From: Octopus sinensis
Taxonomy: Eukaryota
DNA length: 64,000 nucleotides
Direction of reading: 5' to 3'
NCBI RefSeq assembly: GCF_006345805.1
Contig: NC_043017.1
Span: 33,170,001-33,234,000, forward strand
Shown here: positions 2,192 through 61,780 of the stretch, in pieces
How the letters are laid out: each line of letters starts with the position of its first letter
How positions within the stretch are numbered: position 1 is the first letter of the stretch
Made by a program: the position numbers and the translations under genes
The notes under the pieces: model-generated
The model's database searches: none
Seen by the model: only the letters and a program-made list of their open reading frames with translations
Told to the model about the DNA's origin: nothing

Positions 2192-2228
2192 CAGTACCGG
2201 TTTCGGACATTTGAGACCTTTTCAACTG
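2192..2228 (-). ncRNA. Minimal hammerhead-like motif, U3-A8 core variant, in a PLE-type terminus
   Basis: Minus strand reads cag-TTGAAAA-ggtctcaaatgtcc-GAAA-ccgg-TA-ctg; stem I cag/ctg, palindromic stem III ACCGGT, weak stem II. Confidence 0.6.
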
Positions 2229-2717
2229 TAACGATTAAATAATTAAATTTAGAAAAATTAAAAGAAAAGTTTTTTTAAAAGGATATTTGAATAGTGTTCA
2301 AATATAAGTGGCGTTTTCCTTGTTTCTGCCTTTCTCTGTCTCTCTTGTTTACTCTTGTGGGTTCGAGGTCGTTGTATATATATGATGGACCCATAAATAA
2401 GGAGAGGACCAGGAATGAATAAGTCAGGAGAGTTAAGAGAATAAGGTCATCAAAAATATCAGCTTACAACACTAATATTGTTCACAACTTCACTGTGCCG
2501 TCCTCCCCCACACCTACGCTTAACCTGAATTGGGCAGTACAAGAACTCAGTGTGATATATGCTCAGTGTTACAGGAAGCTTCAACAGACAGGCTATATTT
2601 CAAACGTATGTATGTATGTATGTATCTAAATGTGACCTCGTGTGTACCGTTGGCGATTTTTTGCCTCTGTCTTCCCTTCTCTGGATCTTTCCTTCTCTGG
2701 ATCTTTCCTTCTCCTAT

Positions 2718-2752
2718 GTTTCCGACGAAAAGCTCCGCTCGAAACGTTAAAC
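2718..2752 (+). ncRNA. Minimal hammerhead-like motif (CCGACGA core variant)
   Basis: gttt-CCGACGA-a-aagc tcc gctc-GAAA-cg-TT-aaac; stem I gttt/aaac, palindromic stem III AACGTT. Confidence 0.6.
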
Positions 2753-2878
2753 TCTCCTTCTTTCCTTCTTTCCTGAGCGTCCAATAATACTTTATTTGTT
2801 CCACGTCCTCGCGTTGCTGTGTTTTTTTGTGCTTTCTTGTTCGGATTAACTTTATCTATCTATCTGTGTGTGTGTGTG

Positions 2879-2927
<49 letters not shown>

Positions 2928-2939
2928 TGTGTGTGAAAA

Positions 2940-3560
2940 GTTTAGATTCAAAATAAATTACTGGCTTCGATAAATGGTTTTCCTCTGAATACTTCGGGGC
3001 TTTTATCACCCTCATATCTTATGATGATGTTGGCAAATGGTTCTGATTCATTCATAGATTATAGACGCTCTATATTACCATATCATTTGAAATTCTTCAG
3101 GCAATATGTAGAGTAGTGAGTAAACCTTGCTCTTCCTTTAAAATTTCCTAAATTTGCTTCAAAATAAATTGTCTGCCAAGTCAAATTTGCATATCTTAGA
3201 CTTTTGGCAGGATTGGTGACAGACAATTTTATTTCCGAATTATCTTCCCGTTTGTTCGCTAAAAATGTTTCGATAACTTCGACACATTCCTTATCAATAT
3301 TTTGAAAGTAACTTTTTCCTCACAAATTCTAAAAGTTTTCTACGGTGCCTATATGACTCATTGTTTCACAGTGAGGTACAGTTAAAATAGTGCACGAAAG
3401 AAGTCTTTCTCTCGCCTCCTGACATTTTTTATCTTCTACTATTTTCTTCTTTTCTATTTATTCCATATACTTTCAAAATTTCTTCCAGGCGTTACCCATT
3501 ACGATTCGTCTTGGCCTAACGATGTTTAAATGTTTTTTCGTTCCTTATGTATTCGACATT
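2940..3560 (-). mobile_element. Decayed Penelope-like reverse transcriptase fragment
   Basis: Frameshifted minus-strand translation gives SYFQNIDKECVEVIETFL...NLTWQTIYFE.N.GNFK...QGLLT, resembling PLE RT motifs (SLFTNI, YFxFN, QxxGL). Confidence 0.55.
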
Positions 3561-4874
3561 TAGAATGCAACCAAAGCTGATTATTATTATTTTATTCTAT
3601 TTAAACATTGCGGGATAATGTTTACGTTGAGCAATATAATTTCTGGCAATCCCTTTATGCAATGACTTTAACAAATTGATTTCCCTATTCTGTGCCTAGA
3701 TATATGCGTCTTAATATAGAAAGTTGATAAGGCGGCGAGCTGGCAGAAACGTTAGCCCGCCGGGCGGAATTCTTAGCGTCATTTCATCTGCCTTTACGTT
3801 CTGAGTTCAAATTCCGCCGAGGTCGACTTTGCCTTTCATCCTTTCAGGGTCGATAAATTAAGTACCAGTTACGTACTGGGGTCGATGTAATCGACTTAAT
3901 CCCTTTGTCTGTCCTTGTTTGTACTTTCTATGTTTAGCCCCTTGTGGGTAATAAAGAAATAAGAATCGTTACCGCGCCGAGGTCGATTTTCCTTTCATCC
4001 TTTCGGGGTCGATAGCTCAAGTACCAGTTACGCACTGGGGTCGATGTAATCGACGTAATCCCTTTGTCTGTCCTTGTTTATCCTTTCTATGGTTAGCCCC
4101 TTGTGGGCAATAAAGAAATAAGAATCGTTACCACGCCGAGCAAAATGTTAAACGGCATATCGTCCATCTTTACGTCCTGGGTTTCAAATTCCGCCGAGAT
4201 CGACTTCGTCTTTTATTTTTTCGGGGCCGATAAAATAAGTAAAATTTGAGCTCTGGGTGGGGTCAATGTAATCGACTTAACCTACCCACGAAATTGCTGG
4301 CCTTGTGCGAAAATTTGAAACTAATACAGAAAGTTGGTAATTACTGTTTAAAAAATCAATGTAGATTATCACTTCTAAGTGAAAAGTACAATCAGTTCTG
4401 TATCGATCCCATATATAAATATTTAACTTGACAGTTAACAAATGTAAAGCATTTCGTTATAGATTATAACATATAGTGTTTGAAACTAGCTCTCTCCACT
4501 TTCAAATTTAACTAAGAATTGGGTTTGAACTTGTGGAGGGTTTTGAGTGACCGCTGCAGGAAGCAGAGCTATGTCAGTGGCAATCATGAGTAGTGACCCG
4601 ACGTGTGTGTTTACACAAAAGGCTTAATGGTTTACACTCGATTGTGTATCACTTTTTAAAGATGATATACTATATATGTGTGTGTGTCTGTATGTGTGTG
4701 TGTGTGTGTATGTGTGTGTGTAGGTTGTTCAAGAAGTCTTTCTCTCGCCTCCTGACATTTTTTATCTTCTACTATTTTCTTCTTTTCTATTTATTCCATA
4801 TCCTTTCAAAATTTCTTCCAGGCGTTACCCATTACGATTCGTCTTGGCCTAACGATGTTTAAATGTTCTTTCGT
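3398..4874. repeat. 144-bp direct repeat pair (3398-3541 and 4731-4874)
   Basis: aagaagtctttctctcgcc...gtttaaatgtt.tttcgt occurs twice with about 2 mismatches. Confidence 0.9.
3729..4320 (+). mobile_element. SINE family B, tandem multimer
   Basis: Head aaggcggcgagctggcagaa, B box gagttcaaattcc, body gcctttcatcctttcggggtcgataaattaagtacc repeated. Confidence 0.9.
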
Positions 4875-5160
4875 CGATTGTTTAGTCTGTACGTCCACCT
4901 GTGTTTGTTGTTTGGTTTGAAGCCCTAACACTTCACAAACTTTATATTTTCAAAATTTAGCATAGGGAATAATATACAGTCGACAACTGAAGAGGTGTTA
5001 GACTTCTTTTGATATTTTGTCCCGCACTTGTCTCTTGTTATGTGTTCACGTATTTTTCAATCGTTTGTAATGTCCTGTACTTATCTCTCGATATATGTTT
5101 ACGTATTTTTCACTCGCTGGTGATGTCCTATACCTAATGAATATTATATATAATGAATAT

Positions 5161-5225
<65 letters not shown>

Positions 5226-5537
5226 GAATAATATATATATATATTCGTGTTCTACTTGTCATTTGAATGCGGCTATGCACTACTTTAAAGGAATTTAGTC
5301 AAACAAATCGACCCTAGAGCTTATTCTTTGTAAGCCTAATACTTATTTTATCGGTTTCTTTTGCCCAACCGCTAAGTTACGGAAACGTAAACACACCAAC
5401 ATCGGTTGTCAAGCGATGGTGGGGAGACAAGCACAGACAAAAACACACAAATACACACACACATATACGATGGGCCACTTTCAGTTTCCGTCTAACATAT
5501 CCACTCACAAGGCTTGGTTGGGTTGGCCAATGTGTCA

Positions 5538-5597
<60 letters not shown>

Positions 5598-5738
5598 GCA
5601 GAAGCAACAGAGCTTGATAAGTGCCAACGCACGTAACTCTCAGACCTTGAGTCACTTTGTTGCTTCTGTTAAATTTTAATAAAAGTATACATACACTCAT
5701 ATTTTGTGTTCTATTGTTCCTGTTTGCATCACAAAACC

Positions 5739-5775
<37 letters not shown>

Positions 5776-6701
5776 CTGTGTGCGCGCACGCGGTTGCGTG
5801 TCTGTGGTATGTACCTGTAATTGTGTATCTGTGGTGATTTGGCTATGTTGATACCAGTATTTATATCATACCCTGTCTTAGCCTATTGCCTTTGTGATCA
5901 TTCTTCTATGGCCCTAGTTCCACGTGTAACCTACAAATTGTTTTCCTTGGGTAGTTATGTTTTGCGTAAACGCACATCATTTTAAAGAGATAGATTTCGT
6001 CTATGTGGCCCGTTTGCTCTTTGCAAAATTATTAATTATATTATGTAGAATACGCCTAAGCACAGCAATAAGCATTGGAAAAACTTGATTTAAGAATAAT
6101 TCATTTAGTACATATATAAATTAGTACATCATTTAATATGTTTAATATGTTTTCCAGGATTTTTTTAATCTATGAGCAAAAATTTACTTCATGTTTTATA
6201 TTTGATTTATTTTTGTTCTTTCTTTTATGTTCAAGGCAAGCCATTGCCTAAATAGCTCAGGTGCAACAATGCTGAGTGAATTAACATTTCTCGACTTGAA
6301 GAAGATTGATCTTTTAAAAGCGTTTATCCGGCATATTTTCACGTGTGTTCATTATAGGTGTCAATAAACTAGGGCAAGACCGAATACTTTTAGAAGAATA
6401 TAAAACTGTTCAGTCCTTATACTGCGTCAATCATACCTTTTCAATCATTTATTTTTTACTTTTTTTCAGTCATTAGATTGCGGCCATGCTGGGGCACCGC
6501 CTTCTAAGATTTTTAGTTGCTTGAATTAACTCCAGTACTTAATTTTTTTTAAAGTCTGGTTCTTATTCCATCGTTCACTTTTGCCGAACCACTAATGTTA
6601 CAGAGACATATACACACGAACACTTGTCAAGCGATGGTATCACACACACACACACACACATACACACACACACGCACGCACACACACATACACACACACA
6701 C

Positions 6702-7520
6702 AAGGGGCGTAGGATATTTGAGATCAGTTTTATGCTTATAAAAACAGATATATAATAAAAGATAACTTGATTTATCAAAAATTACTATCAGGTTAATAAT
6801 AAACCTTTTCCATAATGTTATTCAATAAAGCCACCTTCAGCTTCAACAACAGCTTCTGTACGACATCTAAATTATCTTCATGTTCGAATCAAGCGGTTCT
6901 GGTTCATTTTGGACATTATTCTGAATATGGCAGCTTTCAAAGAACCTTTGGTGTTATGGGCGTGTTCATTGCCCCCTCTCACAACAACGCTCCACATGTA
7001 ATAGTCCAAAGGACTGAGATCTGGGGCCAAATTAGGTGGCCAAATGTTTGGGGTTATGTGATAATGAAAATTTTCGGCCATCCATTCCTGTGTTACTAGA
7101 TCCATGTGTGATCGTACAGAGTCTTACTGAACTACATATGGCCTTCTATTGCATACACTGTCTATCCAGAGATTAACAATTATTTCCAGGACCTCAATGT
7201 AGGCGGGAGAGTTAGCTCTAAGGCCTTGTGAAAGAAGTAAGGAGGCATCACATGTCCTTCATAGCTGACAACCTATTAAACCACGACAGTTGCAGGAAAT
7301 TTTGAATGCATAACACTTGGAACTTCAAAAGGGTCTTCACAAAACCATCTGTCATTTCTTCTCTTAACCTTTTGATCTTGGTCGAAGTTTTTCTTGTTTG
7401 AGAAAAACCATATTAAATCTTCTTCAGCTGAATTTTTCAGTATGTTTAAGAGCCTTTTAGATCTGATGTAGTGATTTTCATTTGCTTTTTCTGAGTAAGC
7501 TGAGGGTCTGCCATTATTAT
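6702..7520 (-). mobile_element. Tc1/mariner (maT-like) transposase remnant
   Basis: ORF 6878-7105 has IWPPNLAPDLSPLDYYMW; upstream frameshifted KFPATVVV...GHVMPPYFF. Confidence 0.85.
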
Positions 7521-7598
7521 ATTATCATTATTTTCTGAAACAAAGATTATACAGAGTTAGCAAAAGATGTAGCAATGACCTCAAATACCTTACGCACG

Positions 7599-7636
<38 letters not shown>

Positions 7637-8055
7637 CGGGATCCTTTCAATTTCCCTCTACCAAACTCCCAAGGCCTTTGTCGGCCCGATGCTATAATAG
7701 AAGACACTTGCCCAAGGTGCCACGCTGTGAGACGGAACTCTGCACCACATGGTTTGGAAGCAAGCTTCCTACCACACAGCCATGCCTGTGCCTATATTAG
7801 AAACTATATTTACATTTTAGATTCAAGTGTTTTTTTCTTATTTTTTGGTTACGAGGGCAACATGCAGAATTTTGGCATTTTCAACTTTCGTAAAAAAGAC
7901 CTTGAAACAAACGGATAAAGAGGAAACCTATGAAAGTACATCAAATTAGTTTTTGATGACCTTGATTAGATTCAAGCAGCCTTAATTGAGCAAAACCACG
8001 CCCGAAATTATTCCAACGATCACTATTAATTACTTTAAAGGTATCTAAAACTATA

Positions 8056-8288
8056 AAGGCGGCGAGCTGGCAGAATCGTTAGCACGCCGGGCAAAATGCG
8101 TAGCTGTATTTCGTCTGCCGTTACGTTCTGAGTTCAAATTCCGCTGAGGTCGACTTTGCCTTTCATCCTTTCGGGGTCGATAAATTAAGTACCAATTACG
8201 CACTGGGGTCGATGTAATCGACTTAATCCGTTTGTCTGTCCTTGTTTGTCCTCTCTGTGTTTAGCCCCTTGTGGGTAGTAAAGACATT
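8056..8288 (+). mobile_element. SINE family B with TSD
   Basis: Full head and body; ggtatctaaaactata duplicated at 8040-8055 and 8289-8304. Confidence 0.9.
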
Positions 8289-8593
8289 GGTATCTAAAAC
8301 TATACACCCTAACGTGTCCCTTCTTGAATACTGTAAGGATTATTGTCTGCGAGATATGGCTATTATTTCTAGCAGGCCGAGCAGTTAAGTTGGGACTTTT
8401 TCATTGAACCGTTTTAATAAGAGGCTCTCACTTTATGGGAGTGATTATGGCTTTTAGTGTGATCGGGACTATGCAATGTATTTTTTTTACTTTTTCCTTT
8501 CAAGACCATCGGTTCTAATTTGAGGGAGATTTGGATAAGGCTTCCAGCAGGTCAAACGGCCGTGCACACATTCTGTTGTTAGTTCAGTATATA

Positions 8594-8998
8594 GGCGCAG
8601 GAGTGGCTGTGTGGTAAGTAGCTTGCTAACCAACCACATGGTTCCGGGTTCAGTCCCACTGCGTGGCATCTTGGGTAAGTGTCTTCTGCTATAGCCCCGG
8701 GCCGACCAATGCCTTGTGAGTGGATTTGGTAGACGGAAACTGAAAGAAGCCTGTCGTATATATGTATATATATATGTGTGTATATGTGTTTGTGTGTCTG
8801 TGTTTGTCCCCCTAGCATTGCTTGACAACCGATGCTGGTGTGTTTACGTCCCCGTAAATTAGCGGTTCGGCAAAAGCGACCGATAGAATAAGTACTGGGC
8901 TTACAAAGAATAAGTCCCGGGTTCGAGTTGCTCGATTAAAGGCGCTGTTCCAGCATGGCCGCAGTCAAATGACTGAAACAAGTAAAAGAGTAAAAGAG
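8594..8998 (+). mobile_element. SINE family A (tRNA head, CORE-like ttgggcaagt segment, internal microsatellite, stem-loop tail)
   Basis: A box tggctgtgtgg, B box gggttcagtcc, tail cagcatggccgcagtcaaatgactgaaacaag(taaaagag)n; >20 homologues in window. Confidence 0.9.
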
Positions 8999-9589
8999 AG
9001 AGATATCACATGGCTTTTTATGTTTGTCAAGTAACATACTAATTGTAGAGTATGAGCATGCTAATTTTCCACCAATGCACTATTCTAAGATGTCTGACCT
9101 TACTATTAAAGACTGTCCCCGCTTTTCGCTAATAAAAGAAACAATTTAGCTTTTTGAAGCCTTTGTGAATATATTTTTACGATTCATCGGATAGTTTTTA
9201 TTATTTGCATCAAGATTTCATGGTTGTATGAGAACAAGGTATTTCACGCATTGACTTGCCTTTGTATTTCTTAATATAAGTTTTAATTTGATTGTTTAAA
9301 GTTTACCCAAAGTTGCTTATTAATAGATTTTTATAAACGCATCGTATATCATTCGTTCAAACACATATGCGTGTAGGGGTGCGACCCACACGTGAGTTTA
9401 TATGTATACATACATATATATAGATACATATGTGTGCGTGCGTGGGTGCTTGTGTATGTATGTATGTATGTATGTATGTATGTATGTATGTATGTATGTA
9501 TGTGTGTCATGTTATCAGTAAAATCTAAAGTTTTCAACTTTTAAAATAATCGTTTGATGTCTGCTTGTAACTGTGTTAATCCAATTATA

Positions 9590-9722
9590 AATATCTATAT
9601 ATATATATACGTATGTATGTATATATATATATATTATATTTATATATATATGTATGTATGTATATATATATATAATTTATATATATGTATGTATATATAT
9701 ATATATAATATATATATATTTA

Positions 9723-9802
<80 letters not shown>

Positions 9803-9828
9803 TGTATATACATATACATATATACATG

Positions 9829-9860
<32 letters not shown>

Positions 9861-9865
9861 ATATG

Positions 9866-9901
<36 letters not shown>

Positions 9902-15542: not shown

Positions 15543-16182
15543 CTAGCAGATATACCCGGCGTCGCCCTGGTTAAAGAAAATAATGAAATTAAAAAACGCC
15601 ATCAAGATTACGTACGTCTCAGCTGCTAGTAGCTGAGATACCAACTTTCTACATTAATAATCCTCCAACCCATGCCAGCGTGGAACATAGACGTTAAGTG
15701 AAACATTAAAAGAAAGTTTTCAACTCATATATGTATATCAAGTAAATACACGTAATTCAAAAACGCGTCTTGTGTAACTTAGCTCGTAACCAAAAAGCAG
15801 ATTCAGATTATAAACAATGAAAGGCCGATTTTGGTGATTCATTTGACAGAGGTAGTAGAGAACTAATCCGATGATAAACCTGACCTTGGGTCTTGAAAGT
15901 TTGCAAGAAACCTAGCTCAGTTAAATCCCTTGCGGCTCCAAATGATGTTATCAGTAGTGCAGCGTTGTATTGTCTAATTTTGTTTTGGAAATGCTTAGAA
16001 TCTTGGTCAGTTGATGACAACAGTTTCTTCAATGGCTCTGGAGGTTGGGGGCTTGCAAGGTGTTTAACCTTTCCACCACTGCAGCATAGTGCAGGTGTCT
16101 CTCCAGTCCATTTCCTTGCTTTACAAGGTATGCACCCAATTGTCATTGCAGCAATGGAAACTCTAGTGTCATCTGCATAATT
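15543..16182 (-). mobile_element. Helitron 3' end with Rep/Hel N-terminal fragment
   Basis: Minus strand ends in GC hairpin + CTAG|T; ORF 15808-16146 has C..C.A.KW..E....CCSGGKV and IRQYN.AL..TSFGA. Confidence 0.9.
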
Positions 16183-17547: not shown

Positions 17548-19080
17548 CATCATCATCATTGTTCGACCGTGGTCGAGACAATGGAATTTACCATGCTACG
17601 CCAGACTTCACGGTCCATCATGGCATTATGGAGGTCCTGTTGCTGGATGCCTATATCCCTGGAGATTACATCAGGGTAGGAGAGTGTGCGCCCTCTGGTA
17701 TTGCAAGAAGATGGCTTCCAGAGGAGAAGAGTAGAAATTACCTCTTTTTCAACTCTACAACAATGTCCAGCAAACTGGACTCTCCTACCTTTCACAAGAG
17801 ATGACACAGGTGGTAGTTTCCCATATATTTGCATTTTGGTTGGATGACGCTTCCACGAAAGATTTTGAGCTCTCATAAGGAGGAGAGTGTAGGTTCCATC
17901 CAACCGCCTCTCAAGCTTCTTTGATAACGTCCAGGTTTCTGAGCCATATAGTAGAATTGGTTCGACTGTGGCTTTGAATATTTCAAGTTTGAAGTCTCTA
18001 CTTAGATTTGATGACCAGATCTTATGCATGTCATTACAGGCTGACCAGGCCATACCCTTTCTAGTTAGAAAGTCTTTTCCAGATGATGATATGTATGACC
18101 CAAGATATTTATAATCAGAAACCATATTTAAGGGCGCGTTGTTGAGAGTATGGATGATCCAATCACTGTTGGACAGGCACTTGTTTATGTATTCAGTTTT
18201 GGCCTCATTGAGGTAAAGACCTACACAATTTGAGGCTTGTTCAAGAGATTGTAAAATAGACTGGGCATTGGAGAGAGAATCACTGATAAGAGCGATGTCG
18301 TCAGCAAAGTTAGTGTCTGTCAAGTACTCAGCTGGGTGTCTGGAACTTCTTTGTTTTATTTCAAAGCCCTTGTCAGAGATGGTATCAACTGACATACGTA
18401 GCACATAATCAACAACAATGATGAAAAGAAATGGGGCGAGTGTGTCTCCCTGCAGTATTACGGCTTTGATTGAGAAAGATGATGTTTCTCCATCAGGGGT
18501 TAAGATGGTTGAAGACGTATCTGTGTAGAGGACCTTGATGGCAGAAATGATTTTTTCTGGTATCCCATAGAGCTTAAGGATTTCAAACATCTTATACCTA
18601 TCTACAGAATCGAACGCTTTAGAAAAGTCTACAAATACCATTGCAAGATCGCGATTAAATGCTTTTGATTCTTCAATAAGTCTGCGTAGGCATAGTATCT
18701 GGCTCAGCGTTGAGCGCCCATGTCTGAATCCATTTTGGTTCTTTCGGAGCAGAGGTTCAACAAAAAGGACAAGACGATTTAGGATCAGTTTGTTGTACAG
18801 TTTTGCAGCAATTGACATTAGAGATATACCCCTGTAGTTGGTGACGAGGGATAAATCGCCTTTTTGGGGTATTGGAATTATTTGAGATTGGTGCCAAATC
18901 TTTGGAGCGACAAAGGTGGAAAGTGTGTGGTTGCAGAGGTTGAGCAAAAGTGTGTGAAATCTATCATCTTTCCAAATTACAGCTGGGATGTTGTCGGGAG
19001 CAAATGCTTTCGAGGCTTTTAGTTGCTTGGTGGCTGCTGTTAGTTCAAATATGGTAAAAGGGGAGGTGTTGATGTCCAGC
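17548..19080 (-). mobile_element. 5'-truncated RTE-X LINE with 10-bp TSD and (TGA)n tail
   Basis: gagaggaagt at 17538-17547 and 19081-19090; uninterrupted RT frame. Confidence 0.93.
17556..19080 (-). CDS. LINE reverse transcriptase (5'-truncated ORF, no native start)
   Basis: NYRGISL, QNGFR, FVDFSKAFDSV, LQGDTLAPFLF, FADD, YKYLGS, LLYGSETWTL, AGHC motifs. Confidence 0.92.
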
Positions 19081-19496
19081 GAGAGGAAGTAATATGAGTG
19101 ACTCTTCCAAAATCCTAAACAACATCTCAACGAAGAACGGTGATACACTTACTGATGGTAAACTTAGGTCATTAAACAGGAAGCAAGGTACTTAATGTGT
19201 CTGTAATCGTGCCAGATACAAGTCCAAGTATATTAGTCGATAACCTCTGCTGATTGGGATAATTTGTTGACAAACAGCCGCAATTATTAAGCACCAACCC
19301 AGTATATAAACAAATATCAATTTTCAAGCGAGCAGACGATAAATAATTGCACTTATGCGCATGTGCTAAGTGACAGGTAATATAAAAGATTCAGTTTATA
19401 GAAAAACTACACATTTCACTATCCACCACAACAACCACCATTATGGTTTTTTTTTTTTTTTTGGTAACTGTTGCTGTCAATACAAAGTTCGAATAT

Positions 19497-26091: not shown

Positions 26092-26358
26092 AATTGCAGT
26101 GTGGAAGGTGTTTGTAAGCCATTTAAGAAACACACAAAAGCCGTTCGATTCACTTCAACATTTAAGTTTAATTTGTCCAAATATTTTCGTCGCTAAAATC
26201 CGCGACCTGTGCACTGGCAGCACGGATTTTTGTCAGTGAACAGGTCGCGGATTTTAGCGACGAAAATATTTTGACAAATTAAACTTAAATGTTGAAGTGA
26301 ATCGAACGGCTTTTGTGTGTTTCTTAAATGGCTTACAAACACCTTCCACGCTGCAATT
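26092..26358. repeat. Palindrome (128-bp arms, 11-nt loop) made of two inverted PLE-type termini
   Basis: 26092-26219 is the reverse complement of 26231-26358 with about 4 mismatches; flanked by (TA)n. Confidence 0.93.
26229..26278 (+). ncRNA. Minimal hammerhead-like motif, G3-C8 core variant
   Basis: tttgtca-GTGAACA-g-gtcgc ggatttta gcgac-GAAA-atat-TT-tgacaaa; 7-bp stem I, 5-bp stem II, palindromic stem III. Confidence 0.7.
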
Positions 26359-26408
26359 GTTTTCGTTTCAGCACACGATCTCAGATCAAATCACTTGCTA
26401 TGCGAGGA

Positions 26409-26504
<96 letters not shown>

Positions 26505-26625: not shown

Positions 26626-26686
26626 GATAAAACTCTGAGTTTCGGATGCCGAGGTGGAAATCCACACCACCATCTCTTCAGTTATC
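26626..26686 (-). ncRNA. Hammerhead-like motif with canonical CUGAAGA core
   Basis: Minus strand reads gataa-CTGAAGA-gatg...gtggatttccac...catcc-GAAA-ctcagag-TT-ttatc; lies within a 31-bp inverted repeat (26603-26633 / 26709-26739). Confidence 0.72.
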
Positions 26687-32278: not shown

Positions 32279-32316
32279 TCTTTTACGTTTCGAGCCTACG
32301 CTCTTCTACAGAAAGA
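32279..32316 (-). ncRNA. Minimal hammerhead-like motif (CUGUAGA core variant) in repeat 32186-32370
   Basis: Minus strand reads tcttt-CTGTAGA-a-gagc gtag gctc-GAAA-cg-TA-aaaga; second copy at 61398-61433. Confidence 0.62.
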
Positions 32317-34349: not shown

Positions 34350-35325
34350 ATGGAGGAAGGTACCTGGTCTGCAATATCGGTGGACCTGAACGTTTGTGAA
34401 GAACTCGGATCATTAGACACCAGCGAAGCCACACGAATAAAGTATAAAAAGGCGGCGAGCTGGCAGAATCGTTAGCACGCCGGGCGAAATGCGTAGCCGT
34501 ATTTCGTCTGCCGTTACGTTCTGAGTTCAAATTCTGCCGAGGTCGACTTTGCTTTTCATCCTTTCGGGGTCGATAAATTAAGTACCAGTTACGCACTGGG
34601 GTCGATGTAATCGACTTAATCCGTTTGTCTGTCCTTGTTTGTCCCCTCTGTGTCTAGCCCCTTGTGGGTACTAAAGAAATAAATAAAGTATAAATTCCTT
34701 TGAGTGCGCAATGGTCAGAGTTGGTCTGCCTTGGTCAAAAGTGGACAACCATAATGTAGGCCTGAAACATGCACTACATAGATAGTGTTGGTTTTCCGGT
34801 CCTTTAAAATTTAAAACTCTGCACGCGGATGTAGACTTGACGGTCCTCTAGGTGCCTCTGCTTCTACTTTGACCGGTTTCCATGAAGACAAAGAAAGCCT
34901 TTCTGTGTTCAGTTGAGTGCTGTATCCAGGAAAAATTTACATATCCGATTGGATAGTTTTACTAGAGGACGGAAATTCCAAACAAGTAGCAACAGGTCTT
35001 GGTTTTAGATCTTTGTGAACAATATGGTACATATTCCAACATTCATTTCCTCATAAACGCAATCATACTATAACATGGATTAATCCGTGATCTAGGGCTT
35101 AGCGTTTGGGCAATTAAATGACATTCTGCAAGTGCGACATAATGGTACCAGTGAAGCTAAGTTCTTTCATGTTCCACGTGTTGGACACAAGCAAAGTTCT
35201 GGATGTTAACTAGTGGGAGAGAAAATAGAGGGCCAATAAAGATTATTCGGCATATGTTGCAGCTAGCAATATAGATTAGTTTAATAAAGCTGATATTATA
35301 ATACCATGGTGTGATGGCAACATTA
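34350..35325 (-). pseudogene. Decayed intronless Ser/Thr protein kinase pseudogene, interrupted by a SINE
   Basis: Ordered, frameshifted motifs VAIT (VAIK-like), IVHKDLKP (35024-35001), LLL...LVKLS, TQKG...FM; many stops. Confidence 0.5.
34449..34681 (+). mobile_element. SINE family B with 13-bp TSD
   Basis: aataaagtataaa at 34436-34448 and 34682-34694. Confidence 0.9.
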
Positions 35326-38530: not shown

Positions 38531-39442
38531 CCTGTCTTGTCTTCAGAGTATAAACGCAACAAGTTCGAGTGATGTTACTAGTTATACATACCAATTCATT
38601 TTTTAATTAATCCTATTCAGTTGAGAACGTATATTCCTCTTTCCGCAAAAGAGTTTTTTTTTAGTTTTACAAATAATTTAAAGCGGGATGGTCAGGTCTC
38701 ATCCCTCGACCACAACCACACACACATGCACACACACACATGGCAGTCTTTTGAAAACAGTGGGAGAAATGAGACAAGTTATTTTCATACAGGATAACTT
38801 GATTTATTGCTTGCAACAGAGTGTATCCACAAAAGGTAATTAATGTTCAGGTGTTGGCGCCAACCAGGGAAACTGACTAAACCTGGTAGAGGCAAGAAGA
38901 GAAACAATCTTGCACAACTTTTGCTGTATATTAAATTTGACTTACTAGGTTTTGGTAGATGGCATTCGCAATAGGTATCACTCAGTGAGATCGAACTCGA
39001 AACGGCAGAGATGAAAAGAAAAGCATTTCTTCTAACCACTAAATCATTCCTGCGCCAATCTTTAACAACATAGTGATGCCTGCATCCGTTCTTATCCACT
39101 GCAGTGCTCGTATACATATATTCGTACTGCATACAGATATTCTAAGATTCTAAGAAATTTCTTGAGTATGACTAAAACTCTAAGATAACATAGCAAACAG
39201 CGAAGTGCCTGGGGCCAATAGTTTGTGTCTTGTCAGTTGCAGCGCGAACTGCTTGTGAACAAGAAATGGTTCACTCATCTAATTTTATAACTAATCACAA
39301 ACATTGCTATGAACAGTTACATTTAAAGTGGAATAACTGGAACTGCGTAGCTTTGGGTTCAGTTCTGCTTCATGATACTGTGATCAAATGTGTCCTACCA
39401 CAGCATTGTGGAGGTGGTAGTCTTGATCTATAGTCTTGATCA

Positions 39443-39676
39443 AGGCGGCGAACTGGCAGAAACGTTAGCACGCCGGGTGAAATGCGTAGCCGTAGTTCGT
39501 CTGCCGTTACGTTCTGAGTTCAAATTCCGCCGAGGTCGACTTTGCCTTTCATCCTTTCGGGGTCGATAAATTAAGTACCAGTTACGCACTGGGGTCGACA
39601 TAATCGACTTAATCCATTTGTCTGTCTTTGTTTGTCCTCTCTGTGTTTAGCCCCTTGTGGGTAGTAAAGAAATAGG
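39443..39676 (+). mobile_element. SINE family B
   Basis: Full-length copy. Confidence 0.9.
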
Positions 39677-40289: not shown

Positions 40290-40335
40290 AACACAACGTT
40301 TCGGCTGATATACCCTCCAGCCTTCATCAGGTGTC
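40290..40335 (-). ncRNA. Minimal type-I hammerhead ribozyme motif, canonical core
   Basis: Minus strand reads gacac-CTGATGA-a-ggctg gagggtatat cagcc-GAAA-cg-TT-gtgtt; stems I and II intact, palindromic stem III AACGTT. Confidence 0.82.
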
Positions 40336-40387
40336 TAAGGTATTTTTCGATGTTATTCTTCTTCTTCTTATTATTATTATTATTCAC

Positions 40388-40459
40388 GTCACTGCTTGGA
40401 ATCGAACTCGGAATCTTGGGGTTAGTTGCCCGCGCTCTTAACCACTACACCATATGCCC
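40388..40459 (-). promoter_or_regulatory. tRNA-like head with Pol III A and B boxes
   Basis: gggcatatggtgtagtggttaagagcgcggg...ccccaagattccgagttcgattcc; acceptor stem not intact, so not called a tRNA. Confidence 0.78.
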
Positions 40460-41220
40460 GTGGGCAATTATGGAGTGAATTTTAGGGCTTATAGGAAGGA
40501 TAGGAAAATATTAGATTTATAAGCCCTAAAATTCACTGCATGAAAAAACCGCATTATTTATGGGATGACCCAATATATATATATATTTATGGGATGACCC
40601 AATATATATAGAGAGAGATAGACAGACAGACAATCAAACAAACAAACAGGCAGAGAGGGGATGAGGTCTTTGAGTTTGTATTTGGTCTACCCCACGGCAT
40701 CAATGAGAGTCGGTGTTGGTTTGTTTATGTCCCCGGAACTTAACAGTTTGCCAAAGGAGAGCTATGGCACAAGTCTGGGCTCATTTTTTTCCAGTATATC
40801 CTTCAAGGTTGCGCCCCAACATGGCCACAGCCAATGTGTGAGGCAAGTAAAAGATAAAAGATTTTTTTTAAATCTGTTTTTGTAGAAATTATTTCCAACA
40901 AAAAATTTACCTGTTTTTGTATTTTTTAATTTTTATTTCTCCGTTCTGACTTTTACTAGAAATCTGATCGATTAAACATTTATTTAAAAATACCAAAAAC
41001 TTTTCGTAATTTATTTGCAATCTACAATGTTGAATTTATGGATTTCCTCTAAAGAACCAGTTTAATTTCTGTTCAACAATCAAATTCTCTTCAAATGTTT
41101 GTATTTTAGAATTATAAGATATGATTTATATTTATTTATGTGTTCAATAATGGTTACGACACTAGTGTGGCTTCGAATTCATATTTGAATTCATTTTAAC
41201 GTTCAAATCGTCGGGGGTAT

Positions 41221-41612: not shown

Positions 41613-41948
41613 TGGTATACTAGCAAATGGTTTGTTATGTAATTTGTATATAGTGAGGGAGTGGCGACTCAGTTCACCTTCGATACGGTTCAGATATGTG
41701 ATGCTGATATGCCACAAAAATGGCGAAACATCTATGTCCATCACTGCTGAATGGGATTTGGGGTGAATTGTCTCGCTTGTCTATGGCTTCTAGGTGTTTT
41801 AACACCCGACGGTTTGAGGGAGTCATCTCCAACGCGCTACTTCGCAGCCTACCGATGAACAAGCAAATTATGCATTGAGCACATGTGTTCGATAACAGTT
41901 ACAGCGCTAGCGCTGTTTCTAATTCAGATTGAATTTATTTATTTAGAA

Positions 41949-47128: not shown

Positions 47129-48527
47129 ACAAATTGGTATAAAAATGACCACCACCAAAAGTGAACAATATCAACGTTAAAAGCAAGAATTTGTAAGGAC
47201 CTTTTGACTGATGAGAAATTAGCTACGAATTTTCAGTTTGTTAAAATTTTGTTAAACTTTTGAAATACAATTATATAACTTATATACATACAAATTATGG
47301 TTGGCACTGGAAGGACAAGGCTAATGCTGAAAATTTTCCACTACACATTTCTATTAGAACTCGAACTGTTTTTGCCTTAGCAGAAAAAAGGGAGATAGAT
47401 TGATTTTATTTAGAATTGTTTCGATGCATGTTTACAACTGTGAGTGATTCTGGTTTTTCTCATATTCTTCCTTCGTTCTCTCTTTCTCTCTTTCTGATTT
47501 AAATGAAATCAGTTACATGGATGATATAACGATTGGTTATTTACTGCTACATGGATGACATAACGATTGGTTATTTACTGCTCGATCACACTACGATAAA
47601 GATGTACAATCCATGGCAATAGATCAGTTCACTGATACGGAACTACAATGGAAATATTTTATATTAAACGTATATACAATATATCATTCTGGGTCTTATA
47701 TCTATATTGGAAATTTTGAGAGAAATAAAAAAAAAGAAACTAAAGAGACGAAATATTTCATCAGGCTATTCTCCCATAAACGGAAAAGGAATGAACTAAA
47801 TAGGTTTACTGATTATATTGTGAAATACAAATGTACCAACAGCTAAAGCGGGAGCATGTTATTGTCATGATATCGGTTGAATCATGGTAGATTTACAAAC
47901 GCTGGTCCACAAACAGCTCTTCAATATTATAAGTCTTTGAACGACGCTAGAAAAGCAAGAGTAAAGACGGAATATCTTCATAGTACCCTTCAATTCTTTC
48001 TTTGGGTTATTTTATAAAAGGAATATTCTAGCGACGTCATTTTGATTGTCAGCATAAATTCTAGACCACAATGTTTGCGTTTGACAGTTGGTCTAAGAAG
48101 GTGTTCTAAGGTATACACTTTTGAAGTAAGAGCCACATTCTAAATAATATCTATTTATTTACCAAATCCACCCAACTTCCAACGTAATTTCCATTGTATT
48201 ACTATTTAATCCAAGACCAAATAAATAAATAAATAAACAGATAACTTTGGTTTGTCATACCATTTTCTTTTCTTTTCCTTTTTGTTGTTGCTTGTTCTTC
48301 ATATCATCAAGCAACAGCATTTTACGCAGATCTATGGAAAAATAGATTTATAGAAAAGCTGCATGTGTGTGAGCGTGCATGCACATCTACACACACACAC
48401 ACACACATACCAACATTGATGATTGCTTCAATGCGGGACGGAAATCCTTGAAATACTTGAACTAAGTGATCTTTATCGATCCTGGACATTGGCGGCGTGC
48501 AGTAAAGCTATGGCATGGTGAATATGT

Positions 48528-49700
48528 GTTTTAGATCCCAAATTAATTTATTGAGACCTGTACTGTTACGTTTATTCCTACCCCTAAATGTCAAGTAATG
48601 ATTAGAAATTAGTTTAGATAACTGTAAAGACGTGCTTCCAATGAAAAATTGTACTTGATTATGAGTGATAATTTTACACTGGTATGTAGAATTTTTAATT
48701 TTAGAGTTACTTGACATAAACTTGATTCTGTTGGAATTGACTTCAGATACAATAACCTTGTTATTAATATTTCTAGAGGGATGGATGGTATTAGCTGAAT
48801 TAATATTAGTATTAGTAAATGTATTAATATTTAACAGGTTGTTATTATGTGAAGAGATAATTTGTAAGAGATGTTTTGTGCTGGAAAAACCAATCCTAGC
48901 CATATGTGAGTTGATAATAGAGTAATACCTAGAATTCTTTGGAAAATTCTTAATAATAACTTCACGAAACTGCAATGGGAGATTAGATTTAATTGGAAGC
49001 AGTTATCTAAAAGAATTTCTAACCATTACTCGAGATTTAGGGATAGGACTAAACGTAACAGTACAGGTCTCAGTAAATTAATTTGGGATCTAAAAGACTA
49101 CAATAGACAGTTTTATTTAGAATGGTTGATTCTCTCAATCTCAATACCTTATGATAAAGGCAAGGGATTCTGTTTTCTCTGTAATTCTGAACTATTTTTC
49201 ATTATGTTTTTCTAAAAATCCCCTAGTAAACACGGTTATAGAGCGTGCATACCGATGTAAACATTGGCAAAAACACACCTTTAGTTCATATAAGTAATCT
49301 CTATCATTATATATAATTTAAACATTAATTTTCTTTTTATATTTAACATTCACAAGAAATATATATTTTCCTAGTATATAAGGTTTTATTTAATATATAT
49401 ATCATTATATACTTCTCATTAATTTAACTTTTCTTTAATTTATCCCTCCTCTTTCTATGGGATACCTCCGACGTTATATCATACAACGCTTTTTCAGACA
49501 ATATTAATAGCGTTCAGTTAATTACTATACATATCTATCATTTATGTATAGTTAAAATGTCTTATTGACGAATTTCATTCCCTGAAGAATAGATTACATT
49601 GTTTGACACCATTTTATTCCTTTGGAATAATATTAGTGATATCTTCGAAACATGTGTCGGAAGTAAAAGTATTTGAATTACACCTGCGTTAAACTCCATT
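48528..49700. mobile_element. Penelope-like element (probably Naiad-type) 3' region with inverted 5' segment
   Basis: Minus ORF 48508-48975: KNFP...IISSHN...YQCKI...FIGSTS...SNHY..FR...NSTGL.K.IWDLK (GIY-YIG). Plus 49000-49297: ...IWDLK...W.IL...PY...CFLC..E...N...E...CKH with one frameshift. Confidence 0.85.
49578..49662 (+). ncRNA. Hammerhead-like motif in the 3' region of the PLE
   Basis: ttcc-CTGAAGA-(long imperfect stem II containing ttattcc ttt ggaataa)-GAAA-catgtg-TC-ggaa; GUC cleavage triplet. Confidence 0.65.
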
Positions 49701-55087: not shown

Positions 55088-55136
<49 letters not shown>

Positions 55137-55145
55137 TATCGTCAT

Positions 55146-56498
55146 TTAACGTCGAGCGTACAACCCACTAGCTTGTAATCTGTGTAACTGACTATGTGAA
55201 ATTGTGAACAACTTACACTATCCCTATCCATTGTCCTACAGAATACTCTATCTAAATAAGATCTGGACGACCCGATGCGGTTGGTCCATGTCCACATTGG
55301 CACATTCGGGTAGTCCAGTCGGTACCTGTCAGAGAGTTGGAAACGTCTGAGCAGGCCTATGAGACACGTGCATCCCCTTCTCTTCCTATCTCTACCCACA
55401 TATTCTAAATGCGTGTCCAAGGGAGCGTTTCAATTCCCCACTAAAAGTAAAGGTCGAGAAGTTCCCAGGAAAACCTCTAGACGTCGAAAGAAATCCGGCC
55501 AACCTGTTAAGGACGGTGCATACACTGTTACTAGTCGGAAAACAGCCATTATCGCCATTGACATCCAAAACCACAAGCCTGACCAGCGGGTCTAGGAATA
55601 CTGTCCTTGCTTTCAGATCCAGACTCTTTCGAAAATGCACCGCAGTACCACCACCGCCCATTCTCGGCAGACACGAGGAAAAATAAATATCGAATTGTCT
55701 GCCGAACATGGGCTGGAGAGTCCGCGGGTTGGAGAATCTGGTTTCGCTGATGGCTATTATATCTACACTTTGTGACTTGATGTCGTTTAACCGAGCCAGG
55801 CACATTTCTGCTACCTATCTTGAACATGAATCTGACAAAGTTGTGTTTCAGACACAAAGCGAAAATAGAAGGTGAGTAAGAGAGAAAGAGAGTCACTGCT
55901 TCGAAAGTTGGGGATTTTCTCCCTCAGTTTCCACGAGATTTTTGTATAGCTTTTTCGACGAATGTTTTTGAAATCTCCCTACTGCATTGGGGTCGAAAGA
56001 TTTCATTAATTTATGTCTTTTGTGCGGTGTGCAGTATTTTAATGTGTTGTGGTGGTGTTGTGCGTGGGTGGTTGCTTTTTATAATTGTTTTCAGTTTTGT
56101 TGGTGTGCGACTTGATGTATTGCATCAGGCCCAAATGTTTTGTGTCAATTGCGGTTAGCATTGTAGGTGTTTGTTTGTTTGTGTTGTTGGTGCTGGTGTT
56201 GTTGTTATGTGTGGGAGTTTTGTTGTCAGGAGTGCTATATTTCCCTACTTTTTGTTCTCCCCTCTTTTTTCCTTTTTCCTCCTGTGGACGTTTACCATTC
56301 CTCCCGTGTCGCTTTCATCGGACGACATGTCGGAGGTATCAGAAGATGGAATGGTATTGGAGTCTATTTGTGGGGGTGTTGATGTTGTTGCTGTGATTAG
56401 TTTTAGTTTGTAACTGTTGGGATGTGATGTATGGGTTATTGGGGATTTGGGGTTAGTCATTTTTTCCTTTTCAGGCTTTGGTACTTCTGTAGCTTTTG

Positions 56499-56530
<32 letters not shown>

Positions 56531-57570: not shown

Positions 57571-57622
<52 letters not shown>

Positions 57623-57930: not shown

Positions 57931-58154
57931 ATCCATTTTCAGGACAGATCGAAAATTATTTTTTTCAATGAAATTTCAAATGCTTCGGTGAATTTTCGGA
58001 TGACGAAATTCAATTACACGAAAGCTGATGTCGTTAACCAACTGCTGACAAAAATTCAATATAAATAAACATAAATAACTACTAGAAATTGTTTAGACTT
58101 ACGCAGAAACGAACGACAGACAATCAGACAGACAGAAGGTAGATATATATATAT

Positions 58155-58194
<40 letters not shown>

Positions 58195-58198
58195 GGAG

Positions 58199-58246
<48 letters not shown>

Positions 58247-58247
<1 letters not shown>

Positions 58248-58640
58248 CTCTTACTCTTTACTCATTTACTTGTTTCAGTCATTTGACTGCGGCCATGCTG
58301 GAGCACCGCCTTTAGTCGGGCAAATTGACCCCGGGACTTATTCTTTGTAAGCCCAGTACTTATTCTATCGGTCTCTTTTGCCGAACCACTAAGTAACGGG
58401 GACGTAAACACACCAGCATCGGTTGTCAAGCAATGCTAGGGGGACAAACACAGACACACATATATATATCTATATACATATATACGACAGGCTTCTTTCA
58501 GTTTCCGTCTACCAAATCCACTCACAAGGCATTGGTCGGCCCGGGGCTATAGCAGAAGACACTTGCCCAAGATGCCACGCAGTGGGACTGAAGCCGGAAC
58601 CATGTGGTTGGTTAGCAAGCTACTTACCACACAGCCATCC
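58247..58640 (-). mobile_element. SINE family A
   Basis: Full-length reverse copy. Confidence 0.9.
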
Positions 58641-59499
58641 ACTTTTAGCGAATAAAATTTATCAAGTGTATTTTCCCCTTCTGAATATATCTGATCTCAA
58701 CAGATTTTGTATTATCTTTTATTTTCGTGATAGTTTTTCATCTAAATGACAATTTCCCTGAAGTAAAAGAATAGTTTCACATATATACACATAGTTAAGC
58801 ACATACATGCACACACAGGACTTACTTACAAACAATCACGCAGTCACATAATTTGAATACCATTAATGTTTTGAATGAAAGCCATTCTAACAATAAAAAA
58901 AAAAAACTTTAAAGGTGCGTGTCCAGTTCTTAAAAAAACTAGAGTAATGGCTAAACTGCTTAGAAAAACTAATTAATCAAAAGAACTGATAGTTTCCATT
59001 ATAAATTCATTTAAAACTGTTTGTTTGAAATCTCTCCTAAACCAGATGTATTTGTGAAGCATTTGAATGTGTGATAAGTGTTGTATTTACTATATTTCAA
59101 TGGTGCATTTATAGAGATACCTACTTTCATGGTTGGGTCGTTTGCAAGATTACGTATGAAGGAGAGGTGGGCATAATGCAGAGGGATTGTGAGAAACATA
59201 TGGTAGCAGAGAATGTGAGAGGATTGAGATGATCCGATGGCTTGGGTTGGCAGCGGGGGCAGTAGAAATCTGGGTGGAGAGGACAGCGTTATGGATGGAG
59301 GGTAGATGTCAAGACAAAAGTTTGTGGGTCATAGGAAAGATTAGTGATATCATCGAAATATTCCTACAGTAAGAGAAAGGATGGGTAGTGGGGTGATTTG
59401 GGGCGGAAATTAGGCAATTAACCCAGTTGTACTCATATCTGTATGTATGCGTGTGTGTATGTGTGGTTCATACATATAACTCATCTCCCCCAAGTTGAT

Positions 59500-60430
59500 T
59501 GGGTTTTCTGAAGAACCCCCGTATTACTAGTTATCTTGGTCCTTTGGCATTTCCTCCATAAGGTTCAAGTTCCTGAGATCAGCCTTGACAATTTTGTCCT
59601 TTAATCTTCTTGGAACCCCTTCTTTTGCAAGCTCCACCTGAATAAAGTGATTAAGTGATTGGCACCTTATGCTTCTTCCTCATACACTACATTTGATTCT
59701 TATGCCCAGTTTTTCTCTCAGCATATTTCTGCTATGTTGCTCATGCACACTTGCGTTGCATATCCAACAGAGCATGTTTACTTCATTTCTTTCCAGTCTT
59801 CTCAAGTCCTCTGCATTAGAATTATATGGCTAACTAACAGGAAGGGCTGAAATTCTAATGTAGTTGTCACACAATCTGCCTTCCATCCGAAAGGAAAATA
59901 CTAATGTTGCCAGCAGTGGTGGACAATCCCTACATTCTTTCTAACTTTCTTATACCCTGACTTCTATATTTCTAGAAGAGTCACCGCTCTTCCTAATTCA
60001 ATCAATCTAATCATTTAAGAGTCTATTTCTGGTGTGTTCATAGTATGCAATGCTCCAGTGCATCTTTTGCATATGAGAAATACTTTCTCTGTTAGCCTGC
60101 CTTTGATTCCACTACATTTTTCATATGCCTATAGATTGCAGTGGATGCACAGCATTTGGAGTTTATACCTACTCCCTTACCGCCTAACAATTAAGTCCAT
60201 TTCTATGAAGTTTCTAGTGTTCTGTCTTAAGTTTGTCCTAATTATCCTTGGTTCTAGGTTTAGCTCCCATGCTTTGAATTTCCTCTTTAATTCTCTTATA
60301 GATTCAACTATGAGAACTGAATTATCAGCTCATAGATGTTCCCAGGGACACCCAGTCCCAAACTCCTCTGTGATGGCCTGTACAACTATGATGAACAGGA
60401 CAGGTATGAGGGCCGAACCTTAATGAACTC
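59500..60430 (-). mobile_element. RTE-clade LINE RT remnant with Cys-rich insert
   Basis: GSALIPVLFIIVVQAITEEFGTGCPWEHL*AD and KGVG.NS...C..C....KCSGIKGRL...CKRC. Confidence 0.8.
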
Positions 60431-60479
60431 ATATGTGTGTGTGTGCGTGCGTGCATGTAGTGTGTTCATGAAGTTAATG

Positions 60480-61150
60480 TAGATTTAGCCTGTGGTGTCT
60501 AGTTTGTGCACTGAAAGAGCATTGTTGAAGAATGTTAAGAAAGAATGAAAATTGATGTCATCTGCATATGGATGAATGTTGCTGGATGTGGCAGCAAGTA
60601 AGTCATGGTATATAGAAAGAATAGAGCGGAAGATTTACAAAGGGGTCTTCTCGTAAGATAGAGTTTATAGAATGAGGGACAAGAGCTGCGTTGACACAAG
60701 CAGCAATAGGAAGTCACAGAGCATAGAGATCTGTAGTGAATGGAGGTGATAAGCAGGGAATTTTGACGGGAGATTTACACGTCAGACACTGTCGAAAGCT
60801 TTGCGTATGTTGAGGGTGATAGCGTTACTTTCATCAAATTTCTTTAAAGGAAGAACCCATTTGGAAGTGAGAGGGGAATAAGTCACCAGTGGATCTGGCC
60901 TTATGAAAACTGAACTGGTGCTCATTTCGGAGAGAAAGATTCATGGCTTTAGAGGATGCAGTTGTAATAGGTTATCTCCATTATCTCGAAGATATTGGAA
61001 GAGAGTGCAATACGGTGAAAGTTGGTTGGGTTAAAAATGTTCCCTGTTCTGTATATTGTAGCATGTTTCCAATGGTCAAAGTAGATTTCTACAGAGGTGG
61101 AGAGGTTGAAGAGATGAAGGATGAGTAGAAGATTGAAGGATGTGTCGAAG
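60480..61150 (-). mobile_element. CR1/Jockey-group LINE RT remnant
   Basis: HQFSFHKARSTGDL, LNIRKAFDSV, IHPYADD. Confidence 0.75.
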
Positions 61151-61164
61151 ATTATGGCTCACAA

Positions 61165-61296
61165 GTAAATGGCTCTGGTGCAGTGGTTGGGTTCTGTCCC
61201 ACTGCATAGCACCTTGGACAAGTGTCTTCTACTATAACCCCAAGACGACCAAAGCCTTGTAAGTGGATTTGGTAGACGGAAACTGAAACAAGCCTG

Positions 61297-61335
<39 letters not shown>

Positions 61336-61780
61336 TCGCCATGATAGATCGTTAGCCACAACACACATTTTTTTCTCTCCTTGTTTTTTCTGTGTCCCTT
61401 TCTGTAGAAGAGCGTAGGCTCGAATCGTAAAATACATTTTCTATTCCTGAGCGTTATACTAATACATCTGTTTGTTTTGTACACCACCTGTCTTCGTCTT
61501 TTGCTTTTCTCATAAACTCTCCCTTATATATATATATATATATTATATATATTTATATTTATATATCTGTGTGTGTCTTTGTGCCTTTGTTTGTCCTCCA
61601 TCACGACTTGGCAACCGCTGTTAGCGTGTTTACATCCCTGTAACTTTGCTGTTCAGGAGAGCGACCGATAGAATAAGTACTAGGCTTTAAAAAAGTAAGC
61701 CCTAGGGTCAATTTGTTCGACTAAAATCTTTCAAGGCAGTGCTCCAACATGGCTGCAGTCTAATAACTGAAAGAAAGAGA
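61165..61780 (+). mobile_element. Old family A SINE with a hammerhead-bearing repeat (61332-61525) inserted in its internal (TA)n
   Basis: Insert is the reverse complement of 32186-32370; motif cttt-CTGTAGA-a-gagcgtaggctc-gaatcgta at 61398-61433. Confidence 0.82.

Follow-up and report, generated by a model that had tools for sequence, protein, structure and literature searches.

Minimal hammerhead motifs of Octopus sinensis include high-copy families with a G3-C8 pair or a U6 core

We analyzed a 64,000-nucleotide stretch of the Octopus sinensis genome (assembly GCF_006345805.1, NC_043017.1, positions 33,170,001 to 33,234,000; hereafter, the window), for which an earlier note had described eight minimal hammerhead ribozyme motifs. 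All eight were present at the places and on the strands given there, each in type I order. The motifs are real, of a known kind, and mostly inert copies. Overall, we consider it probable (roughly 0.7) that they are 5′-truncated, mostly decayed copies from the 3′ ends of several families of Penelope-like elements (PLEs), together with non-autonomous repeats that likely depend on such elements. In this reading, different lineages have fixed C-G, U-A, or G-C at the tertiary pair between core positions 3 and 8, and the G3-C8 form is predicted to be a weak cleaver. The reading draws on the observed motif anatomy, copy numbers, and family-wide 3-8 states, on 5′ inversions, a microsatellite neighborhood, and two clustered 3′ ends, and on the position of the motifs behind reverse transcriptase (RT) and GIY-YIG endonuclease frames in the families that we term A (window position 26229), B (2192), and C (32279 and 61398); a further family at 40290 is termed E. 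The window lies on contig C21 of the 2.72-Gb assembly, has 37% GC, and carries many microsatellites and interspersed repeats.

Motifs were scored with a descriptor that leaves positions 3 and 8 free, and those scoring at least 11 were counted. Four motifs in the window reached this score, where 60 local dinucleotide shuffles predicted 0.1, and an even sample of the genome (120 evenly spaced 10-kb stretches of contigs 1-6, 1.2 Mb) contained 25, compared with 2.75 in 8 shuffles. The comparison with shuffled sequence, which had been proposed as a check on the motifs, thus yielded a forty-fold excess in the window and a nine-fold excess in the even sample. A Watson-Crick 3-8 pair was found in 22 of the 25 even-sample motifs (17 C-G, 3 U-A, and 2 G-C), versus about one third in the shuffles. 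Extrapolating the density of the even sample suggests roughly 50,000 intact motifs genome-wide, and five exact patterns together had 31,212 genome matches. The enrichment and the pattern counts bear out the claim of many families at high density. Reversed control patterns gave zero matches in eight of nine pattern searches and one match in the remaining search, that of the initial family B pattern. Three of the eight motifs passed the descriptor (26229, 26626, and 40290); the fourth window match, absent from the earlier note, is a C3-G8 motif of a further family at 1879..1929 (+). Chance matches, or artifacts of fold-back repeats in an AT-rich genome, have next to no probability as an explanation, and copy number and context rule them out for families A, B, C, and E. 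The motifs at 26229 and 26626 do sit in inverted repeats, and relaxed descriptors do yield chance matches, such as a G3-C8 candidate beyond family A (L213, two copies, G at position 6) that we rejected as chance inside apparent LINE coding sequence, but the excess over shuffles, the nearly empty reversed controls, and the fixed position behind PLE frames all speak against such an origin.

The family A motif (26229..26278, +) has the core GUGAACA, with G3 facing C8, an extra G after A9, a stem I of 7 bp, a stem II of 5 bp, a palindromic AAUAUU, and U17. It belongs to a 5′-truncated PLE 3′ end consisting of motif and tail (26217..26414, +; end approximate), which lies between microsatellites and folds back on an inverted, 5′-truncated copy of the same 3′ end (26092..26216, −; ends approximate). 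The window copy of the motif is locked in this perfect fold-back, a hairpin at 26149-26305 of −108.6 kcal/mol. With the stems fixed and positions 3, 7, and 8 left free, the family A pattern had 4,746 genome matches, and its reversed control had none. G3 was found in 4,581 of these matches (96.5%), leaving 165 without it, and C8 in 96 of the 100 matches listed; no C3-G8 was found among the 100 listed of the 165 copies lacking G3. Of 70 copies retrieved independently of the motif, through upstream sequence, protein, or random choice, 69 carried G3 and 68 carried C8. Public runs under four organism labels contain the family A stretch as well, and in the contigs of four runs (three organism labels) no other letter reached 5% at any of positions 3-9, while loop II varied and a common change in stem I gave a U·G wobble. 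None of the 24 listed of 660 run contigs had a loose end at the cut site; contigs show no starts or ends, and hence this result is no evidence either way.

Family A copies tie the motif to a PLE. Their 3′ part, of about 220 nt, is cut variably at the 5′ side, often accompanied by an inverted copy, and adjoins (TA)n. The 3′ ends form two clusters about 58 nt apart, the second of which falls at the end of the reference stretch. Longer copies run upstream into RT and GIY-YIG frames, and the same tail stands behind the frames in two copies (L112 and L354). One of them (L354) holds an open frame of 1,042 codons, in which a YVDD motif, a cysteine linker, and YIGET can be recognized by eye; Pfam gave no match to this frame at E<=0.1, and in the L112 frame GIY-YIG scored 22.6 bits, right at the cut-off. 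The parent element accordingly encodes RT followed by a GIY-YIG endonuclease in a single frame. Among the 30 best endonuclease matches, an intact G3-C8 motif lay 0.9-1.1 kb downstream in 19 and a damaged one in 5; of the remaining 6, one was cut by the contig end and five had no motif. The element's protein has 72 homologues, mostly unnamed, two of which are labelled as reverse transcriptase domain, and one element's protein has its best named relative under an Octopus vulgaris label (54% identity). For the parent element we observed 5′ truncation, inverted 5′ copies, an optional tail, and AT-rich targets. The RT, cysteine linker, C-terminal GIY-YIG, 5′ truncation, inverted 5′ copies, optional tail, and microsatellite targets are all shared with Neptune/Nematis-type EN+ PLEs (PMC8557442), although our tree does not fix the clade, and the 3′ tail matches the tail described for PLEs (PMC11167929, PMC8557442); here and below, comparisons with published work refer to portions of the papers cited. 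In a tree of endonucleases, which comprises 11 local rows and no named reference, the U3-A8 lineages stand apart from that of family A (99/97). Five of its eight inner branches are open, and the tree was not used for ordering events. Judged against the literature searched, this lineage, in which G3-C8 occurs naturally in thousands of copies and is connected to an open PLE frame, is likely a new variant.

The U3-A8 state is represented by family B, whose window copy (2192..2228, −; core UUGAAAA) carries one mismatch in stem II. A pattern built on this mutated stem II was discarded, as it retrieved only 19 decayed copies, compared with 2,907 genome matches for the intact stem II. At least 8 of 100 listed matches form a subfamily in which a stem II base pair has changed in a compensated manner from G-C to A-U, and U3 and A8 were present in 30 of 30 loci. 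A PLE frame lay within 1.5 kb upstream in 19 of 46 family B copies, versus 3 of 300 random stretches. Splice-acceptor-like stretches, with a branch-point-like word, pyrimidines, and CAG, were noted by eye in two families: directly at helix I in family B (window 2226-2242, −), and some 20 nt ahead of that helix in family A (L112:6800-6819). Both recall the Penelope of Drosophila virilis, in which an intron end has been reported at helix I (PMC4209133). We also observed a second U3-A8 family with other stems, located about 0.55-0.8 kb behind PLE frames, one of which spans 780 codons (L057:2340-2420; L066, L070-L072).

At the level of families, the 3-8 position covaries, and the C-G, U-A, and G-C states listed for the window in the earlier note are correct and family-wide. 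Among 22 clusters of at least two motifs (a set enriched by targeted fetches, in which family A includes copies fetched for lacking G3), all the large ones have C-G, U-A, or G-C as the main 3-8 state, and no A3-U8 family is present. A retrozyme-like tandem family outside the window, defined by one stem I and matched 1,237 times, shows a wobble route from C-G to U-A: by eye, the 100 listed matches comprise 73 C-G, 12 U·G, and 15 U-A, with no C-A.

Whether selection maintains these states is less clear-cut, and the claim of structural selection holds in part. In family A, shared variants affect 4 of 8 loop II sites and 1 of 42 sites in core and stems (p=0.0014); the latter fraction does not differ significantly from the 13 of 185 variant sites in the flanks (p=0.48). 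Since copies within a family are not independent, family A amounts to one event. Its variant core could thus be a frozen accident, in which a single master with one or two neutral core changes was amplified and G3 and C8 pair by chance. The single event, the comparison with the flanks, and the free decay of copies after insertion all suit such an account, which we nevertheless find quite improbable: several independent families keep a pair or a wobble at 3-8, loop II differs between subfamilies where the core does not, and a chance second change would restore pairing in only one third of cases. We therefore favor selection on replicating masters rather than on genomic copies, which decay; this is likely, judging from the variation patterns, if not proven.

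Family C departs from the canonical core at another position. Its motif in the window (32279..32316, −) has a C3-G8 pair and the U6 core CUGUAGA (CUGUNGA in the family), with stem II GAGC-GUAG-GCUC and stem III ACGU. A second copy, assigned by sequence (61397..61434, +), retains the U6 core and is decayed, with GAAU in place of GAAA and mismatches in stem I. Family C had 14,214 genome matches, with U6 in 99 of the 100 listed, and searching the even sample and the window with stem II as the sole criterion gave 10 copies, all of them with U6. Position 7 varies freely among 30 loci (A in 9, U in 12, C in 6, and G in 3), while positions 3-6, 8, and 9 are nearly fixed. Remnants of RT and GIY-YIG lie upstream in two copies (L355 and L356, with GIY-YIG scoring below the cut-off), and remnants of a PLE frame in two further copies, one of three upstream matches being the frame of another family. 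An A6 sister family is represented by a decayed copy at 2719..2751 (+); its relatives mostly read CUGACGA with a 3-nt loop, and here U4C is combined with a mismatch at the base of stem II. The superfamily of 2719, 32279, and 61397 had 19,638 matches. Among 100 of these listed, all 22 A6 copies have a 3-nt loop II and all 78 U6 copies a 4-nt loop, an association that may reflect shared descent or compensation. By analogy with laboratory mutants, the U6 family likely keeps the fold and cleaves poorly or only when assisted. The family, whose U6 core the earlier note had overlooked, is likely new as far as the literature searched can tell.

The base altered in the largest family belongs to the core, and such an alteration should severely impair catalysis. 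In the mechanism that we propose, the PLE protein would start reverse transcription downstream of the motif and copy through it on uncut RNA; because reverse transcription would run through the motif, copies holding both motif and frame would have come from uncut RNA. Such read-through would scatter genomic copies that are not under selection and limit selection to the masters, and different lineages would have fixed different 3-8 pairs, likely because master RNAs must keep the tertiary pair. Any cleavage would be slow and would need a palindrome-mediated dimer or the element's protein, as in published PLE hammerheads (PMC4209133, PMC11167929), and the weak cleavage predicted for the G3-C8 form would probably be helped by a second copy or by that protein. 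The prediction of weak activity for G3-C8 and doubtful activity for U6 derives from a full double-mutant scan, in which the G:C swap was the only rescue in this region and other changes in the CUGA turn had low activity (PMC9901934). The same swap partly rescues a PLE hammerhead that requires its protein (PMC11167929).

Alternatively, the fold may persist because it serves the PLE protein as a structural signal or a binding signal, with no cutting needed and U6-type changes tolerated as catalysis is lost or relaxed. We hold this to be unlikely. In its favor, the largest family, with 14,214 matches, has U6 as its fixed state even though single mutants of the CUGA turn are poorly active (PMC9901934), and long copies are uncut from the motif into the frame. 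In the anole element, catalytic mutants inserted unaffected in vitro, and the cut site was not the end of any RNA read (PMC11167929). An active conformation, however, better fits a Watson-Crick pair at 3-8 that is kept through C-G, U·G, U-A, and G-C, along with G5, G12, and a non-G at position 17.

Several observations weigh against our preferred reading, that of truncated PLE copies whose masters keep the tertiary pair. Cleavage is dispensable for insertion in vitro (PMC11167929), and catalysis by the U6 form is made less credible by the low activity that CUGA-turn single mutants had in the laboratory (PMC9901934). The minimum-energy dimer contains the expected intermolecular helix III for family B only, and not for A, C, or E. 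In the one long copy with the 1,042-codon frame (L354), no upstream repeat with a second motif precedes the frame. Because no close C3-G8 sister was found, the swap in family A is seen only against the general consensus; among more distant endonuclease relatives (63-72%, L357-L362) there is no sister motif, and only L359 has a motif, which is again G3-C8. To these are added the nonsignificant comparison of core and stems with the flanks and the paucity of PLE frames in other families: a frame was found upstream in 1 of 11 copies of the 2718 family, weakly in 1 of 5 copies of the 26626 family, and in 0 of 11 copies of family E. The PLE origin proposed for the window's motifs is supported for families A, B, and C, which have upstream RT and GIY-YIG frames, whereas no such frame was found in the 11 copies of the 40290 family.

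A bolder version is that both variants are working ribozymes. An animal retroelement that was recently active would then carry a natural G3-C8 hammerhead, and the U6 form would cleave when aided by its 4-nt loop, by a dimer partner, or by the element's protein. We regard this as possible, though doubtful. If true, descriptors would define the natural hammerhead core too narrowly, and the states C-G, U·G, U-A, G-C, and A6 to U6 would make up an evolutionary series within a single genome, with which the need of PLEs for cleavage could be tested. In any case, PLE hammerheads are kept across clades while being poor cleavers and dispensable for insertion in vitro, and this genome offers natural controls, at scale, for the need to cut. 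One lineage kept the 3-8 pair through a full swap that is otherwise known, in the literature searched, only from the laboratory.

In the open-licence papers considered, every instance of G3-C8 was an engineered one; the work of Lunse et al. 2017 lies outside that scope, reportedly presents a very large set of PLE hammerhead variants, and could contain either variant. A search of the same literature for 'A6U' returned, from the portions considered, one paper, on twister ribozymes, and no octopus hammerhead paper was found there. Minimal hammerheads of metazoan PLEs, in thousands of copies per genome and including natural U3-A8 forms, have been published (PMC4209133; PMC3088659). Those surveyed by Cervera and de la Pena 2014 (PMC4209133) resemble ours in type I order, the extra nucleotide after A9, and a tiny palindromic helix III; in the many families per genome, the thousands of solo truncated copies, and the opposite-strand pairs; and in a U3-A8 variant, with about 1,300 matches in Schistosoma. 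In contrast, neither G3-C8 nor U6 occurs among the 56 representatives that the survey shows in its Figure S3, the portion considered includes no cephalopod, and the copy numbers found here exceed the 4,000-9,000 reported for coelacanth and frog (PMC4209133). Engineered C3G/G8C hammerheads (PMC11167929, PMC9901934, PMC3884650) share the swapped tertiary pair, which partly restores cleavage, yet they are laboratory mutants, whereas the swap found here is natural, being the state of a family that numbers thousands of copies and has an open RT-endonuclease frame. Among the natural core variants of Perreault et al. 2011 (PMC3088659) are U3-A8 covariation and a change at position 6, A6C, with a kobs under 0.1 per min; the latter was one phage sequence, compared with a 14,000-copy family here, and G3-C8 and A6U are not named in the portion of the text considered.

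The window's families differ in how far they conform to the minimal PLE hammerhead. Family-typical copies follow type I order, with the first two helices present and helix III tiny or palindromic, several window copies being decayed. A core of CUGANGA (or UUGANAA) with GAAA and UH occurs in families E and B and in the motifs at 26626, 49578, and 1879, and is lacking in families A (GUGAACA) and C (CUGUNGA), which are for that reason variants rather than plain members of this class. Standard CUGANGA descriptors miss about 19,000 motifs of these two families here, so that such variants may be undercounted elsewhere. The cores given in the earlier note were read correctly for five of the eight motifs and wrongly for three: the motif at 2718 reads CCGACGA, with U4C, and those at 32279 and 61398 read CUGUAGA, with U6. 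Its statement that stem sequences are unrelated between families needs a similar amendment, as 2718, 32279, and 61398 form one superfamily that shares stem II GAGC/GCUC and stem III ACGU. The stems were also said to be still pairing, which is true of about half of the motifs. The copy at 2192 has a U-U mismatch in stem II, that at 2718 a mismatch at the base of stem II, that at 49578 a damaged stem II, and that at 61398 stem I mismatches besides its GAAU; these defects look like decay, because the relatives in each family are intact.

Family E has a canonical minimal motif (40290..40335, −; CUGAUGA, an extra A, and stem III ACGU) with 2,684 genome matches. Upstream lies a tRNA-like head with A-box-like and B-box-like stretches recognized by eye (40386..40470, −), in which ARAGORN called no tRNA. 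The head was present in 5 of 12 family E copies, the window copy included, and 8 of 13 tRNA-like head matches in the even sample have the family E motif body within 260 nt. As a whole, the family appears SINE-like, with a tRNA-like head, (AAT)n, a minimal hammerhead, and frequent 5′ inversions (window 40290-40470, −; L180, L188, L215), and it may be a PLE-mobilised SINE. Non-LTR retrozymes and the hammerhead SINE-like repeats of Schistosoma (PMC7229834, PMC6765202, bioRxiv 10.64898/2026.07.22.740005) are likewise short and non-coding, carry type I hammerheads, and are thought to be moved by PLEs; family E, with its tRNA-like head, and the tandem family outside the window resemble them. Unlike retrozymes, family E has a minimal motif, is dispersed, and shows inversions. 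The retrozyme-like family forms tandems of about 353 nt (contig C1, 105634451-105636609 and 148255719-148256822), and its stem III palindromes change between subfamilies.

The links of two other families to PLEs are weak. The 26626 motif (26626..26686, −), flanked by an inverted repeat, combines C3-G8 with a long stem II, a bulged C before G12, and stem III ACUCAGAGU; in one of its subfamilies (L116, L169), U4C occurs together with a U before G12. For the 1879 family, the single upstream frame match is a neighboring family C element. The motif at 49578..49662 (+) is a decayed C3-G8 motif with a long stem II and stem III ACAUGUGU, to which intact motifs in L047 and L139 are related. About 370 nt upstream of it is a likely remnant of a PLE endonuclease C-terminus (49051..49212, +), assigned through a known endonuclease motif and its resemblance to the frames that precede related hammerheads, and a related frame lies inverted at 48508-49002 (−). 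Pfam found no match for the remnant. One of the two upstream-frame matches of the 49578 family is the window's own query, and another query, G58, was excluded from the upstream-frame survey, its matches stemming from a short interspersed repeat within it.

A search with the Rfam hammerhead families (clan CL00010) recovered none of the eight motifs among the best 150 of 227 matches, and a focused Rfam scan at 40290 gave no hammerhead match; the top Rfam rows in the window were microsatellite look-alikes of microRNAs. Absent from the earlier note is a decayed canonical HH9-like type I hammerhead with positions 8 and 9 altered (41686..41760, +), which matched RF02275 at 40.2 bits (gathering score 52). 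The window also contains remnants of other mobile elements, recognized by eye and all on the minus strand: a LINE reverse-transcriptase frame of 530 codons, read from its translation (17556-19148), an AP-endonuclease remnant (55392-55814), a Tc1/mariner-like transposase remnant (62549-63016), and a Helitron-like remnant (15808-16182). Two abundant families of short interspersed repeats make up most of the non-microsatellite repeats (3725-3960, 8052-8287, 34445-34680, 39438-39673, and others).

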